Assembly: GCA_050944415.1 (NCBI GenBank)
Contig: JBMNRA010000003.1
Location: 2,243 to 66,242, forward strand
Reading direction: 5' to 3'
DNA: 64,000 bases
From: Ruminococcus sp.
GTDB taxonomy: Bacteria > Bacillota > Clostridia > Lachnospirales > Lachnospiraceae
The position numbers and the translations under genes were made by a program. The notes beneath the pieces were generated by a model. It did no database searches, had not been told where the DNA came from, and saw only the letters and a list, made by a program, of their open reading frames with translations. Shown piece by piece: positions 15,650 to 30,797 of this stretch; position 1 is the first letter of the stretch, and each line of letters opens with the position of its first letter.

Positions 15650-16829
15650 AACCTTTCATCCTTTCCAATTTCTCTGTATGTGTCAGAGAGTTCCTTTTTC
15701 GCAGCATCCGGTTTCTGTCATCCCAGGCATACAGTGTTTTCAATACAACCTCCTGATTCTCAAAACCAATGACTTCGCTGATTTCCAGAACCCTTCTTTT
15801 TTTATCCTTCAGCCTTCCCAGATGTATCATGATATCCACGCCGGAAGCAATCTGACGCCGGATAGCTTCCAGCGGGAGCTGCATTCCCATCAGTACCATA
15901 GTTTCCATTCTGCTGATCATATCCGCTGTACTGTTCGCATGAAGAGTTCCTATACTGCCTTCATGTCCCGTGTTCCAGGCTTGAAGCAGATCAATGGCTT
16001 CCTCCTGGCGTACCTCGCCCACAATAATTCTGTTGGGCCGCATTCTGAGAGCCGTTTTGATCAATTCCCGTATTGTAATCTGTTTTCCTCCTTCCATATT
16101 GGCGCTTCGCGCTTCCAGACGAACCAGATTTTCAATCCCCTGAATCTGAAGTTCAGCAGTATCCTCAATGGTAATAATCCTCTCATCCTTCGGGATAAAG
16201 TTGGAAAGGGCATTGAGAAAGGTTGTCTTTCCGGCGGATGTACCGCCTCCAATCAATATGGAATATCCGCTTTTCACCAGCTCTTCCAGAAAAAGAGCAG
16301 CTTCTTCCGATATGCTTCCAAGAGCAATCAACCGTTCCATAGTTATAGGAGAATCAGGGAACCGGCGGATCGTCATCACTGGTCCCCCAATGCATGCAGG
16401 CTCCACAACAACATTAACCCTGGCGCCATTTTCAAGTCTTGCATCCACAATAGGACTGCTTTCGTTGATAATTCGATTACATTTCCCCACAATCTGCTGA
16501 ACCACATCTTCCAGCTTCTCTCTGGAGGTGAACTTCTTATCGTATCTGCTGATTCTTCCTCCTTTTTCCACAAAAATCTGATCACTGCTGTTGACCATAA
16601 TCTCTGTCACTTTCGGATCATCGATCAGATCCTGAATCACATCCAGACGGCGTACCGAATCAAACAGTTCTTTCTGTATCTTCCCTTTCATATTCAGCGG
16701 CAACATCCTGCCATACCGGTCATCAAGCATCATATCATCAATAATTTCTCTGATCTGGCGGTCTGACAGATCCGGCGTCTGTTCCAGCCGCTCCATGAGA
16801 TCTTTCTGCAGTTTTCCAAATTCCGTCAA
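15639..16829 (-). CDS. tadA: CpaF/TadA pilus assembly ATPase
   Basis: Walker A GGTSAGKTT, TIEDTAEL, RMRPNRIIVGEVR, GSIGTLHANS; probable TTG start 16829. Confidence 0.93.
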   Translation of the reverse strand: MTEFGKLQKDLMERLEQTPDLSDRQIREIIDDMMLDDRYGRMLPLNMKGKIQKELFDSVRRLDVIQDLIDDPKVTEIMVNSSDQIFVEKGGRISRYDKKFTSREKLEDVVQQIVGKCNRIINESSPIVDARLENGARVNVVVEPACIGGPVMTIRRFPDSPITMERLIALGSISEEAALFLEELVKSGYSILIGGGTSAGKTTFLNALSNFIPKDERIITIEDTAELQIQGIENLVRLEARSANMEGGKQITIRELIKTALRMRPNRIIVGEVRQEEAIDLLQAWNTGHEGSIGTLHANSTADMISRMETMVLMGMQLPLEAIRRQIASGVDIMIHLGRLKDKKRRVLEISEVIGFENQEVVLKTLYAWDDRNRMLRKRNSLTHTEKLERMKGYEA

Positions 16830-17845
16830 TGATTCTTTTCCTTTCTTACCAGTTCCCTGACAAAATCCCCCAACTGGCTCCAAACCAGCTCATCCAGATA
16901 TTCCCTGCCCCGTTTTTCCGTTCTGTGATACGGAAGTTTCACTTTCTCAATCCGCTCCAAAAGGCTGTCATAATTCCACATCTGAAGAAGATGTTCAAAC
17001 TGCTGCAGCTTTGCTGTCGACATTACGTCTCCCCGTACAGGCATATACACTCTGTGACATTGATTCAAAAACGCATACAACTCGCTGACTCCATCGCCGA
17101 AATCCAGAATGATCGTCTCATAAGGCATATTATTTTCGATTTCCTCCAGCAGCTGAATCCACTCTCCCAGCTTCGTGTTTTGAACATCCATAGGAGACAG
17201 AGCCGGCGGCAGATAATCCAGATTGTTTACCGACCGTACCATTCCGCTGATTTTCAGCGGCAGGTTATTATAATCCTGTCGGATAAAATAAATCAGATCT
17301 CCCAGATTTCTTTCATAACTGCAGTCCAGAAGCTGCTCAAATCCGGCATATTCCTCCAAATTCAGATAGAGAACAGGCTTTTCCTTTGCCAGAATCTGTC
17401 CAAGAGTGAGAGCGAAAGAGGTTTTGGCAGTTCTCCCCACAGGTGAGTAAATGCCGATGCGCTCTTTTTTCTGACGGTTTCCCGTTTTCTGAAAGCACAG
17501 TTTTTCTTTTGCGCCATAGCAGTTCATCACTTCACGAATCACCGCATCTGAAGACTGATACTTGTAAACGCTTGGATAGCAGTCCAACATAGGGTGATGA
17601 ACACCTTCCGAGAGAATTACAATCTGACCGATATCCAGCGTTTTTATCTCCTCGCACATAGCCTTATCAGAAATCAGAAGGATCTCTATCTTCTGTTTTT
17701 CAGCAAATTTCTTCAGCGAATCCAGGCCGGTAAATGCCTGAATATCAAAGGGCATACTGTTCTTTCGGTGAACGTATTCTACGAAATTGCAGGCGTAAGC
17801 CGCTTCCAGATCGCAGACGGCCAGAATATTTTTTCCACTGTTCAT
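16826..17845 (-). CDS. CpaE/TadZ-like protein (receiver-like N-domain plus deviant ParA/MinD P-loop)
   Basis: IYSPVGRTAKTSFALTL, YLNLEEY, IILDFGD; position upstream of tadA. Confidence 0.75.
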   Translation of the reverse strand: MNSGKNILAVCDLEAAYACNFVEYVHRKNSMPFDIQAFTGLDSLKKFAEKQKIEILLISDKAMCEEIKTLDIGQIVILSEGVHHPMLDCYPSVYKYQSSDAVIREVMNCYGAKEKLCFQKTGNRQKKERIGIYSPVGRTAKTSFALTLGQILAKEKPVLYLNLEEYAGFEQLLDCSYERNLGDLIYFIRQDYNNLPLKISGMVRSVNNLDYLPPALSPMDVQNTKLGEWIQLLEEIENNMPYETIILDFGDGVSELYAFLNQCHRVYMPVRGDVMSTAKLQQFEHLLQMWNYDSLLERIEKVKLPYHRTEKRGREYLDELVWSQLGDFVRELVRKEKNH

Positions 17846-18355
17846 TTAATAAAAACCTCCCATATGCAGCATAACGGCCATGAAAACCGGTACGCTGAAG
17901 TGTATATTTTCCAGTCGTTTCCCTTTTTTGCAATAGGGAACAACAGATTTTCTGGTGTAAAGATTACGGAAATATTCGGTGAAATACCGAAGACGTATGA
18001 TCAGAGTTTTTGTATCAATAAGAATTGCCGCACTTAAAAGCGCTCCAAAGAAGAAAGACAGTACCATACATTTTAAAACCACCGCTGGCCCCATTACGCT
18101 TCCCAGCGCTGAAAGGAGCTTGATATCCCCCGCTCCGATCATCCGGAAGAAAAACAGTCCGGCCAGCGTCATCAATGGCAGAAAAGCTCCCGCCATACCG
18201 TTTCCCAGACCCTGAAAACCTTCTGTAATTATCTGAAATATCAGCCCGGTCCCCCAAAACAGGCAGATGCCTTCATTTGGTATACGCTCTGATTTCAAAT
18301 CACAGACTACAGCAGAGTATGCCATAGCAAATAGTATTTTATAATAAAGGGGCAA
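17846..18355 (-). CDS. A24-family prepilin peptidase (CpaA/TadV-like)
   Basis: CDLKSERIPN, IGAGDIKL, HFSVPVF. Confidence 0.88.
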   Translation of the reverse strand: MPLYYKILFAMAYSAVVCDLKSERIPNEGICLFWGTGLIFQIITEGFQGLGNGMAGAFLPLMTLAGLFFFRMIGAGDIKLLSALGSVMGPAVVLKCMVLSFFFGALLSAAILIDTKTLIIRLRYFTEYFRNLYTRKSVVPYCKKGKRLENIHFSVPVFMAVMLHMGGFY

Positions 18356-18554: not shown

Positions 18555-19031
18555 ATGGCAAAAGAAGCAAAAACCAATGTAATGCGGATACTGGACAAAA
18601 ACAAAATTCCCTATCAGGCTATCTATTACCAATGCGATGAATTCATTGACGGACTCCACACCGCCCAGCTGACCGGCGCTCCTGTGGAACAGTCCTTCAA
18701 AACTCTGGTAGCCCGCGGAAAAAGCGGCCAGTATTACGTTTATGTAATCCCTATCGCTCGGGAAGTGGATCTGAAACTGGCTGCAAAGGCTGCCGGTGAA
18801 AAATCCGTGGAAATGATTCACGTAAAAGAAATCAACAGTGTTACCGGTTATATCCGCGGCGGCTGCAGTCCGGTGGGAATGAAAAAACAATTTCCCACTT
18901 TCATTGATGACAGCGCGCAGCATTTTGAAACCATATACATCAGCGGCGGTAAAATAGGCGTTTCCATCTGTCTTTCCCCACTATCATTATGTCAACTTGT
19001 CCATGGAACATTTGTCTCTATTTGTGCCTAG
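18555..19031 (+). CDS. ybaK: Cys-tRNA(Pro) deacylase
   Basis: KTNVMRIL, FKTLV, TGYIRGGCSPVG, ISGGKIG. Confidence 0.9.
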   Translation: MAKEAKTNVMRILDKNKIPYQAIYYQCDEFIDGLHTAQLTGAPVEQSFKTLVARGKSGQYYVYVIPIAREVDLKLAAKAAGEKSVEMIHVKEINSVTGYIRGGCSPVGMKKQFPTFIDDSAQHFETIYISGGKIGVSICLSPLSLCQLVHGTFVSICA

Positions 19032-19125
19032 TATTGAAAATATATATTATTTTCAGTTTTTTTATTTTATATATTTTTTTATTCAGTTTAAATGAATATT
19101 TTTTTATTATTTTTATTTTTTACTA

Positions 19126-19154
19126 TTGACTTTTTCTTTGTTATCAGATATAAT
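19126..19154 (+). promoter_or_regulatory. Consensus sigma-A promoter
   Basis: TTGACT (19126-31), 17-nt spacer, TATAAT (19149-54); AT-rich upstream tract. Confidence 0.8.
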
Positions 19155-19160
19155 AACATT

Positions 19161-19364
19161 ATCAAAAGAAACAAATATTAAGATAAGGAGGACGGACCAC
19201 CGAAAACTTAACGATTTACCCCAAAATTTTATGAAAGGAAGGTACAGACCACCAAAAACTTAAGTTAAAACCCAAGAAAAAAATTTATGATTTGAGGTAC
19301 ATTCCAATGGACAACGAAATTTAAAAGGAACTATCAGAAGTGGTTAATCTGATAGTTCCTTTTT
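19161..19364 (+). ncRNA. Candidate ~200-nt small RNA with internal degenerate direct repeats
   Basis: Bounded by consensus promoter and strong terminator; no ORF over 10 codons; repeat units 19185-19234 and 19235-19290. Confidence 0.5.
19323..19364. terminator. Bidirectional intrinsic terminator
   Basis: Perfect 15-bp IR AAAAGGAACTATCAG / CTGATAGTTCCTTTT. Confidence 0.85.
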
Positions 19365-19370
19365 CGTTGT

Positions 19371-20147
19371 CTAAACATGAAGTTTTTTCAGTTCTTCTTT
19401 CCTTCTGTGTTTTCGGTACAGACTGGCCGTTTTGTTGTACAGATAAAAGGATTGAACCAGAATCTGATGCCACTTTCCCATCTTGTCTTTCGTCGTTTTC
19501 GTATAAGGCGTCCCTCCGCAGGTAACTTCTCCGCCGCTTTGAATATATCGGATCAGATCTGATTCTCTGCGAATCTCTTTAGGCAGCTCTGTATATGCTG
19601 TTCCAATGCAGTCATAGCGATGGGAATCGCTTCCCCCGAAACCAGGTTTCATAAACCGTTCCGCCAGCATTCTTGCAGACTCGTTACTCTGGTCGGATTC
19701 ACAGGCATTAAAGGTTTCGATAAAATCAAATTTTCGGAAGATGGCATCTTTATTTCTTTTCTTCTTTGTATTGGCAATACCCAGGTAACGTTCACCGCAG
19801 GGATGAGCGGGACCAAGAATACCCCCGTTTTTATGAACCACATCAATCAGTATCTTAATGGGCAGTCCTCTCAGCTCCAGTACACGGATTTTTACGCCTT
19901 CCGGCATAATCACCAGAATATGTCCCGCATCAATCGTATCATATTCAATTCCTTTCAATACAATGAAGTCTTTATGGCGCTCCCCTTTTATATGATTTTT
20001 CCATTCCCGGTATCCATTATAAGTGTTGTGATCGGAAACCAGCATCCCCTTAAACCCCAGCTCCTTGAGCCGGATAATATAATCTTCAATGGGGACTTTC
20101 CCATCCATGGAACCTTCCTTTGTATGGCAGTGCATATCAAATTTCAT
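19371..20147 (-). CDS. PHP-domain phosphoesterase
   Basis: DMHCHT, SDHN, GIEY, AHP, GGSDSH. Confidence 0.88.
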   Translation of the reverse strand: MKFDMHCHTKEGSMDGKVPIEDYIIRLKELGFKGMLVSDHNTYNGYREWKNHIKGERHKDFIVLKGIEYDTIDAGHILVIMPEGVKIRVLELRGLPIKILIDVVHKNGGILGPAHPCGERYLGIANTKKKRNKDAIFRKFDFIETFNACESDQSNESARMLAERFMKPGFGGSDSHRYDCIGTAYTELPKEIRRESDLIRYIQSGGEVTCGGTPYTKTTKDKMGKWHQILVQSFYLYNKTASLYRKHRRKEELKKLHV

Positions 20148-30700: not shown

Positions 30701-30797
30701 TGCAACGGGTGCAGATTTCATATCGTAAGACGAACTTTTCGTTTCGGCGGCAACTCCCCATCCACTGAACACTTGACGCATAAAATCCTATTTTGCA
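30701..30797 (-). ncRNA. THF riboswitch (class I)
   Basis: Minus strand UGCAAAAUAGGAUUUUAUGCGUCAAGUG...GAUGGGGAGUUGCC...AACGAAA...AUGAAAUCUGCACCCGUUGCA: P1 UGCAA/UUGCA, P2 GGAUUUUAU/AUGAAAUCU, GGG/CCC pseudoknot; upstream of folE, followed by a hairpin and T7. Confidence 0.85.

Follow-up and report, generated by a model that had tools for sequence, protein, structure and literature searches.

The window, by which we mean the whole stretch of DNA that was analysed (64,000 nucleotides (nt) of Ruminococcus sp., a member of the Lachnospiraceae; GenBank assembly GCA_050944415.1, contig JBMNRA010000003.1, positions 2,243 to 66,242), contains a small-RNA gene between a gene for an aminoacyl-tRNA editing-domain protein and a convergent PHP-domain gene. 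The predicted RNA, which is ~205 nt long, belongs to a Lachnospiraceae-wide family of chained modules that resemble miniature translation-initiation regions and is uncatalogued in Rfam. As judged from its sequence, the locus is a conserved stand-alone gene built of modules, each of which comprises a Shine-Dalgarno (SD) sequence, a spacer, a start codon or a CCR triplet, a short frame and a stop codon, with the last frame ending inside the terminator. The parts of the element, followed by its surroundings, are listed below.

19126..19154, + strand: sigma-70-type promoter, with -35 box TTGACT (19126-19131), a 17-nt spacer and -10 box TATAAT (19149-19154); 11/12 matches to the consensus
19161..19365, + strand: predicted RNA, matched end to end in other genera by covariance model R1
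19185..19211, + strand: module P1, without a start codon; SD AAGGAGG (19185-19191), 8-nt spacer ACGGACCA (19192-19199), then CCG AAA ACT TAA (19200-19211)
19212..19223, + strand: box CGATTTACCCCA after the P1 stop codon, moderately conserved, its C-rich part resembling the anti-SD sequence
19235..19263, + strand: module P2, without a start codon; SD AAGGAAGGT (19235-19243), spacer ACAGACCA (19244-19251), then CCA AAA ACT TAA (19252-19263)
19294..19324, + strand: module B, a terminal mini-cistron; SD GAGGT (19294-19298), spacer ACATTCCA (19299-19306), then ATG GAC AAC GAA ATT TAA (19307-19324), which reads MDNEI
19323..19368, + strand: intrinsic terminator; 16-bp perfect stem (19323-19338 / 19348-19363), 9-nt loop and T run
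19032..19125, + strand: AT-rich spacer with T runs, seen in the sequence, adjoining the -35 box on its 5' side; its T-rich tract is retained when the genomes of the genus are aligned
18555-19031, + strand: upstream gene, for a YbaK/EbsC-type aminoacyl-tRNA editing-domain protein (PF04073)
17846-18355, - strand: type IV prepilin peptidase gene (PF01478), within 16826-18355 and beside a 339-residue open reading frame (ORF) without a Pfam match
19371-20147, - strand: convergent PHP-domain gene, the next gene after the element, identified in a Pfam scan of the window's neighbours

When the locus was compared by BLAST with 60 relatives, a 256-nt unit was found in 7/7 same-genus genomes, at 71-93% identity, and in several other genera. 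The promoter, the three repeat units and the terminator all align across the 7/7 same-genus genomes and one genome of another genus. Because the whole unit aligns in this manner, with compensation in the terminator stem, we conclude that the conservation is more than chance, which bears out the stand-alone small-RNA gene proposed in a first-pass annotation of this DNA. The same annotation had described a TTGACT-17-TATAAT promoter, which is indeed present. A promoter scan of a 2-kb region found 5 promoter-like sites compared with 4.7 in shuffled sequence, which is no excess, and support for the promoter therefore comes from its hexamers: the TTGAC of the -35 box and the TATAAT of the -10 box are invariant in 9/9 aligned genomes. 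The 5' end of the RNA is predicted 7 nt past the -10 box, at the conserved ATCAAAAGAAA, and its 3' end within the T run after the hairpin. The conserved AUCAAAAGAAA stands near this predicted start, and an oriented alignment of the nine genomes shows little or no variation in the 5' leader ATCAAAAGAAA or in the core of any of the three units. The ~160 nt between promoter and hairpin contain no ORF of any size, in agreement with the initial description of this segment as free of a real ORF.

The hairpin that ends the element had been reported as a perfect 15-bp terminator; it is perfect, and its stem comprises 16 bp rather than 15. A terminator scan overlooked it only because the loop limit of that scan was 8 nt. 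In the nine-genome alignment, compensatory changes at 6 pairs preserve pairing of the stem, which begins within the stop codon of module B, and this stop codon overlaps the first base pairs. The 3' part of the RNA folds far better than shuffled sequence (z -4.35). In contrast, the body (19161-19309) folds like shuffled sequence (z +0.14), and RNAalifold returned for it only helices of 2-4 bp made of invariant bases, with no covarying helix. Because no fold beyond chance was found in the body, its conserved sequence is read here as single-stranded. The terminator ends just short of the 3' end of the PHP gene (19371), and the hairpin probably serves as a bidirectional terminator shared by the RNA and that gene. 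An additional 10-nt perfect inverted repeat, 19310-19319 / 19362-19371 (GACAACGAAA / TTTCGTTGTC), would pair codons 2-4 of the mini-ORF with sequence past the T run, and these outer arms are only partly kept in the same-genus genomes.

Within the body, the first-pass annotation had recognised two degenerate direct repeats of ~53 nt and a third partial unit, each opening with an SD-like purine run. The two direct units and a third, diverged unit that starts at 19294 are present, with a refined period of 52 nt and a 20-nt core that is 90% identical (19192-19211 / 19244-19263), and the units are kept across genera. The SD-like character of the units is likewise supported. The layout in the window is P-P-B, with two of three units lacking a start codon, and the SD of P1 begins 25 nt from the inferred +1. 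Predicted duplexes between SD and anti-SD have energies of -15.6 kcal/mol for P1, -15.0 for P2 and -10.8 for B, compared with a genome median of -10.4, as calculated with the canonical Firmicutes 16S tail taken from general knowledge, the rRNA operon lying outside the assembly. Because the distance of 8 nt from SD to start position is constant and the duplex energies of P1 and P2 are strong, the modules look like translation-initiation regions. A search of the organism's own genome for other sites with the same ribosome-binding-site design returned none besides the element itself. One early suggestion was a micro-peptide, MKGRYRPPKT, encoded by the 10-codon ORF ATGAAAGGAAGGTACAGACCACCAAAAACTTAA at 19231-19263. 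We rejected this candidate: its ATG is replaced by AAC, AAA, GAA or AAG in 4/8 aligned relatives, and the ORF has no SD.

The anatomy of the modules was read from ~150 loci of the family. Each unit has an extended purine SD that ends in AGGT and a fixed 8-nt spacer that ends in CCN, followed by one of three continuations. In P units, the start position is held by CCA (~105) or CCG (~61), which is followed by RRA (AAA 94, GAA 35, AGA 19, GGA 10), by ACN (ACG 57, ACT 43, ACA 40), the third position of which is free, and by a stop codon. The in-frame stop lies exactly 3 codons past CCR in 170/198 P units; among the other 28, 17 keep an in-frame stop within 6 codons (CCA GAG TAA; CCA GAA GCA GAA TGA; CCA AAG ACT GAA TGA). 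In M units, which occur in some genera, ATG stands at the same position in ~30 cases, with ATC in 8 and ACA in 10, and is followed by two codons and a stop, as in MKT, MRT, MKH and MGR; CCACC is absent from these ATG-type modules. A B unit opens with ATG or TTG, continues with GAY and another three to five codons, and closes with a stop codon that supplies the first base pairs of the terminator. Family-wide, the box CGATTTACCCCA is only weakly conserved.

Within one RNA, P modules come first, M modules next and the B module last. P-B (47) and P-P-B (12) are the layouts seen most often, and a P module is the first unit in 83/100 arrays of a locus set that favours P. Copies of the P core number from 1 to 6 or more per RNA, and Blautia has arrays as long as P-P-M-M-M-M-M-B. 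A locus of Anaerobutyricum hallii DSM 3353 (L081, 1150-1960) contains eight P-like units with a period of ~60 nt, a ~300-nt spacer, the frame TTG GAC ATA ATT GAA AAT CAT TAG (MDIIENH) and a terminator. The triplet that precedes the start position is a proline codon in nearly all units, being CCA in 257, CCC in 13, CCG in 11 and never CCT. As a separate observation, CCA is the rarest proline codon of the organism's own genome (8% of proline codons, 3.0 per 1000), and this rarest codon is the near-invariant triplet before the start position of every module.

Module B varies across the family as a coding sequence does. Among 79 unique five-codon versions, the start codon is ATG in 40 and TTG in 39, codon 2 is GAT in 37 and GAC in 36, and the stop is TAA in 38, TAG in 31 and TGA in 10; the split between GAT and GAC indicates that Asp is kept through synonymous change. 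Using anchors for B that were defined without the use of stop codons, we found that the first in-frame stop ends -1 to +4 nt from the base of the stem in 102/186 cases, compared with 9 and 8 in the other frames. Between the ATG of B and the stem, the most frequent distance is 16 nt, and the ORF has 5 codons in 86/141 candidate B units. A palindrome, TCCAWTGGA, was evaluated as the cause of the swap between ATG and TTG and rejected: the base at -4 is variable (T 59, A 20, G 16) and its would-be partner stays A, which leaves only CCA/TGG symmetric. Taken together, these patterns are fairly strong signs that a ribosome reads the B ORF, as far as comparison of sequences can indicate.

The family is widespread in the Lachnospiraceae. 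In a sample of 401 genomes, approximately one for each genus of the family, R1, which models the whole RNA, matched 119/401 at E <= 0.001, although its E-values are rough, and some genomes hold two tandem copies of the RNA. A pattern scan for the unit core across 185,579 species genomes found at least 120 named loci that carry the P core, nearly all of which are labelled Lachnospiraceae; among the matches listed are Blautia, Mediterraneibacter, Roseburia, Dorea, Schaedlerella, Sporofaciens, Anaerobutyricum hallii, Hungatella, Lacrimispora and others, and of the named relatives, 'Candidatus Ruminococcus avistercoris' is the nearest. No member of the family was found in a plasmid collection. The sole look-alike in a phage collection is a complete P-P-B element with promoter and terminator, encoding MHSSNL, in MT835613.1 (L166, 2440-2720), an UNVERIFIED 'Bacteriophage sp.' from human faeces; this contig, which carries no annotation, may be bacterial DNA in a virome. 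Complete elements also occur on short contigs of an Eggerthellaceae bin (L083), a Dysosmobacter segnis bin (L105) and an Acetivibrio metagenome-assembled genome (L087), which are probably contigs of Lachnospiraceae that were mis-binned and not a sign of true spread. Comparison with Rfam 15 gave no match at the element, whether the window was searched at gathering scores, the segment 18950-19450 at E up to 10, or 10 diverse members of the family again at gathering scores, and returned hairpin-driven noise only; literature searches found no prior description of the RNA. These results are consistent with the initial view of a candidate novel small RNA.

The surroundings of the element are less constant. 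The AT-rich spacer upstream of the promoter may act as an UP-like element. The ybaK-like gene upstream and the PHP gene downstream are kept as neighbours within the genus only. The PF04073 family includes Cys-tRNAPro deacylases, and a gene of this family thus adjoins an RNA whose start-less modules hold CCA-CCR proline codons; this adjacency, restricted to the genus, is probably a coincidence. The type IV prepilin peptidase gene fits the 'tad' neighbourhood to which the element had been assigned. Elsewhere in the window, a tetrahydrofolate (THF) riboswitch aptamer (RF01831) at 30701-30797 on the - strand, with 79.8 bits, is the sole Rfam match.

Based on the module design and on the behaviour of module B, we propose that the RNA exerts its function through the ribosomes that bind or translate it, a reading to which we assign a probability of roughly 0.5. 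Under this proposal, 30S subunits would dock on the 5' P modules without initiating, in the way suggested for STAB-SD elements, and would either shield the RNA or hold ribosomes, whereas module B would be translated. An initiating ribosome on B would abut the terminator hairpin, from which the start codon is separated by ~16 nt, about the reach of an initiating ribosome. This distance suggests that initiation is possible beside the intact hairpin and that the stop codon would be reached only by melting the whole 5' arm. Each passage of a ribosome could then open the 3' hairpin, which would tie ribosome availability to the lifetime of the RNA or to read-through of the terminator; at this locus, the read-through transcript would be antisense to the PHP gene. 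For the cell, the consequence could be that translation capacity or early-elongation factors are sensed or buffered.

Several observations weigh against this proposal. The SD strengths of P1 and P2, which lie near the 5th percentile of the genome, are still inside its range, and that of B is average. The frequencies of P-type modules are inflated, as the named-locus set was gathered with a P-type pattern, and the module counts come from phylogenetically related sequences rather than from independent events. Since the P modules have no start codon, their apparent reading frame may be a motif at the level of RNA (AAAACNTAA) that is not decoded. In addition, the near-invariant 13-mer GGTACRGACCACC of the P units is conserved beyond the needs of ribosome binding, which could accommodate a specific partner, whether protein or RNA. 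Finally, within the B ORF, Ile is always ATA (33/33) and codon 4 mostly ends in A, which points to constraint on nucleotides.

The main rival is a sponge for a Lachnospiraceae RNA-binding protein other than CsrA that recognises the P core AGGTACRGACCACC, with the features of a mini-ORF being incidental. The core is nearly invariant over many genera, more so than an SD and a spacer require, it recurs within one RNA, and the body that carries it is unstructured, as in sponge RNAs. However, the geometry of the modules is exactly that of a ribosome-binding site, in some genera the modules have ATG in place of CCR and lose CCACC, and the B ORF varies in its start codon, in its stop codon and at synonymous positions. 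No candidate protein is known. We regard such a sponge as unlikely, if worth keeping in view.

A further possibility is that production of the pentapeptide (M-D-x-I/E-V/F/I; in this window MDNEI) is the purpose of the RNA, with the peptide working as a product or, while still nascent, on the ribosome that makes it. Retention of Asp at codon 2 through equal use of GAT and GAC, the bias of residues 4 and 5 to I/E and V/F/I, and the prevailing length of five codons would all fit a selected peptide. Residue 3, however, is free, the family includes MIEPVS and MHSSNL, and the invariable ATA for Ile suggests that the constraint acts on nucleotides. A peptide also leaves the P modules unexplained, and we consider this explanation improbable.

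We hold a comparably low opinion of a base-pairing small RNA that would use C-rich single-stranded boxes (CCACC, ACCCC) to target mRNAs at their SD regions. The RoxS/RsaE RNAs of Firmicutes work in this manner, as base-pairing small RNAs with C-rich boxes directed at SD regions, and the present gene resembles them in placing such boxes within an unstructured, A-rich body and in standing alone with its own terminator. Yet the strong SD-like sequences of the RNA itself would pair with the C-rich boxes, and a search of the genome at >=15/18 nt found no complement of the P core. Moreover, CCACC is lost in ATG-type modules, and the ACCCC box is weakly conserved across the family.

A narrower version of ribosome engagement holds that the modules present a substrate for elongation factor P (EF-P), such that the RNA would serve as a decoy or sensor, either for EF-P or more broadly for quality control in early elongation (loss of very short peptidyl-tRNAs by drop-off, and Pth). 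The start-less P units would then mimic a ribosome stalled on Pro-Pro: if the SD places the ribosome in the usual way, the P-site codon would be AUG/UUG or CCA/CCG, read by tRNAfMet or tRNAPro, and the E-site triplet would be a proline codon. tRNAfMet and tRNAPro are the only tRNA species with a D-arm recognised by EF-P (PMC4890201), and one study reports that E-site CCG, CCA and CCC stabilise EF-P slightly better than CCU, although the overall effect of the codon is small (PMC11514478). A dedicated initiator-like tRNA that reads CCR was not found in the assembly, which has the usual three tRNAPro and one initiator among 37 tRNAs detected. We regard this version as decidedly improbable.

We likewise see little prospect for a cis-acting leader or attenuator, in which translation of the mini-ORF masks the terminator and transcription enters a downstream gene. 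The stop codon does lie inside the terminator stem, the next gene is on the same strand in 75/109 loci, and two clusters of downstream genes recur, GH3/NagZ-like and polysaccharide-deacetylase-like, with names read from the sequences by eye. However, the next gene is convergent in this window and throughout the genus, and the gene families found downstream vary from clade to clade, with a convergent cluster of proteins that look radical-SAM-like and others among them, and start at distances of 1 to ~500 nt past the terminator. Because neighbouring genes, both downstream and upstream, differ between clades, we rejected the idea that the RNA is the leader of one gene family.

The first-pass annotation had favoured a CsrB/RsmZ-like sponge that titrates CsrA or another SD-binding factor. 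The observation behind this proposal is correct, in that a stand-alone RNA with SD-like repeats contains five ANGGA pentamers (19185, 19192, 19235, 19307 and 19325), the last of which sits inside the terminator stem. Nevertheless, the Pfam CsrA domain (PF02599) was not found in the organism's own 93%-complete genome, although the controls from E. coli, B. subtilis and T. maritima were detected, and tblastn with B. subtilis sequences of CsrA, FliW and Hfq found nothing. CsrA is present in 210/401 genomes of the sample and in 42/119 carriers of the RNA, with 77/119 lacking it (odds ratio 0.37, without phylogenetic correction); this negative association may reflect flagellated versus non-flagellated clades. 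In addition, the purine runs at the head of units 2 and 3 are without GGA in three relatives (G002, G003 and G006), the conserved core is AGGT...CCACC, the body has no conserved hairpins that could present GGA motifs in loops, and the Rfam models of CsrB/Rsm gave no match even at E up to 10. We conclude that titration of CsrA is highly improbable, which removes the tempting but wrong annotation of a 'CsrB-like sponge in Clostridia'; the wider phrase 'other SD-binding factor' still holds if the ribosome is taken to be that factor.

An orphan type III antitoxin (ToxI/CptI-like tandem-repeat RNA) can be dismissed with similar firmness: cptIN and toxIN systems occur in Lachnospiraceae and likewise place tandem repeats (31-62 nt, 1.9-5.6 copies) between promoter and terminator, but their toxin gene directly follows the terminator on the same strand (PMC3401426), whereas here the next gene is the convergent PHP-domain gene, downstream proteins sampled elsewhere are not ToxN-like by eye (the Pfam scan covered the window's neighbours only), and the repeats have diverged outside the 20-nt core of their 52-nt period while each unit is conserved across genera.

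Blautia, Mediterraneibacter, Roseburia, Dorea, Anaerobutyricum and other Lachnospiraceae are among the dominant bacteria of the human gut, and little of their regulatory-RNA biology has been described. The present RNA is conserved in ~30% of sampled genera, has a near-consensus promoter and is unmatched in Rfam 15 and in the papers searched. From its design, the translating ribosome would seem to be its 'ligand'. If ribosome engagement is correct, the family would offer a tractable system for the study of non-productive ribosome binding, very short ORFs and the interplay between ribosome and terminator in Firmicutes.

Known systems share individual features with this RNA. STAB-SD 5' stabilisers (the cry3A leader of B. 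thuringiensis and the aprE and hbs leaders of B. subtilis) contain a start-less SD that is thought to bind 30S and shield the RNA, and the P modules resemble them in being 5'-proximal and in combining an SD with the lack of a usable start codon. A STAB-SD is a single element in the leader of an mRNA, whereas the P modules are repeated, carry an invariant core and an in-frame stop, and are followed by nothing but a 5-codon ORF. Leader-peptide attenuators (the erm and cat leaders, and those of the Listeria lmo0919 type) set a very short ORF against a terminator, and the position of the ribosome decides the hairpin. In contrast, the neighbour here is convergent, with no regulated downstream gene, and the ORF overlaps the terminator rather than an anti-terminator. 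CsrB, RsmY and RsmZ are also stand-alone RNAs with repeated SD-like motifs, from which the present RNA differs in its genome, where no CsrA was found, in the conserved element, which is not GGA, in the location of the motifs outside hairpin loops, and in the absence of an Rfam match.

Other systems act through translation, or through ribosome binding, at minimal sites. The Start-Stop sites of E. coli are demonstrably used ribosome-binding sites without a useful product (bioRxiv 10.1101/520783), but they are single and nested inside genes, whereas here the sites form a dedicated RNA gene. CreT RNA toxins comprise a translated minimal ORF behind an efficient ribosome-binding site, in which consecutive rare codons (AUA or AGA) trap a rare tRNA (PMC8501985). 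The likeness lies in a natural small RNA with a minimal ORF behind a ribosome-binding site. However, CreT adjoins the CRISPR-like repressing creA, and no creA or cas context was present among the genes examined here. Moreover, none of the codons of B (GAC, AAC, GAA, ATT) is rare in this genome, and the rare CCA lies before or at the 'start', outside the decoded ORF.

Minigenes combine a strong SD with a start codon, a handful of codons and a stop, a form that module B and the M modules of relatives share, and they act through translation itself rather than through a protein product. The bar minigenes of phage lambda and laboratory minigenes of 3-8 codons act via peptidyl-tRNA drop-off and tRNA sequestration (PMC2490762), and the axe-txe minigene is another single element of this design (PMC8708949). 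Scored for an SD, a start codon, 1-6 codons and a stop, module B qualifies as a minigene and P1 and P2 do not. Unlike minigenes, the modules here are chained in a conserved, chromosomal, stand-alone RNA, and the two 5' modules have CCG or CCA at the start position. None of the systems compared is a chromosomal, family-wide chain of modules, has the start-less CCA-CCR form or embeds an ORF in a terminator. If the proposed engagement of ribosomes is correct, the small set of RNAs that act by translation, to which minigenes and CreT belong, would extend to a widespread chromosomal family.

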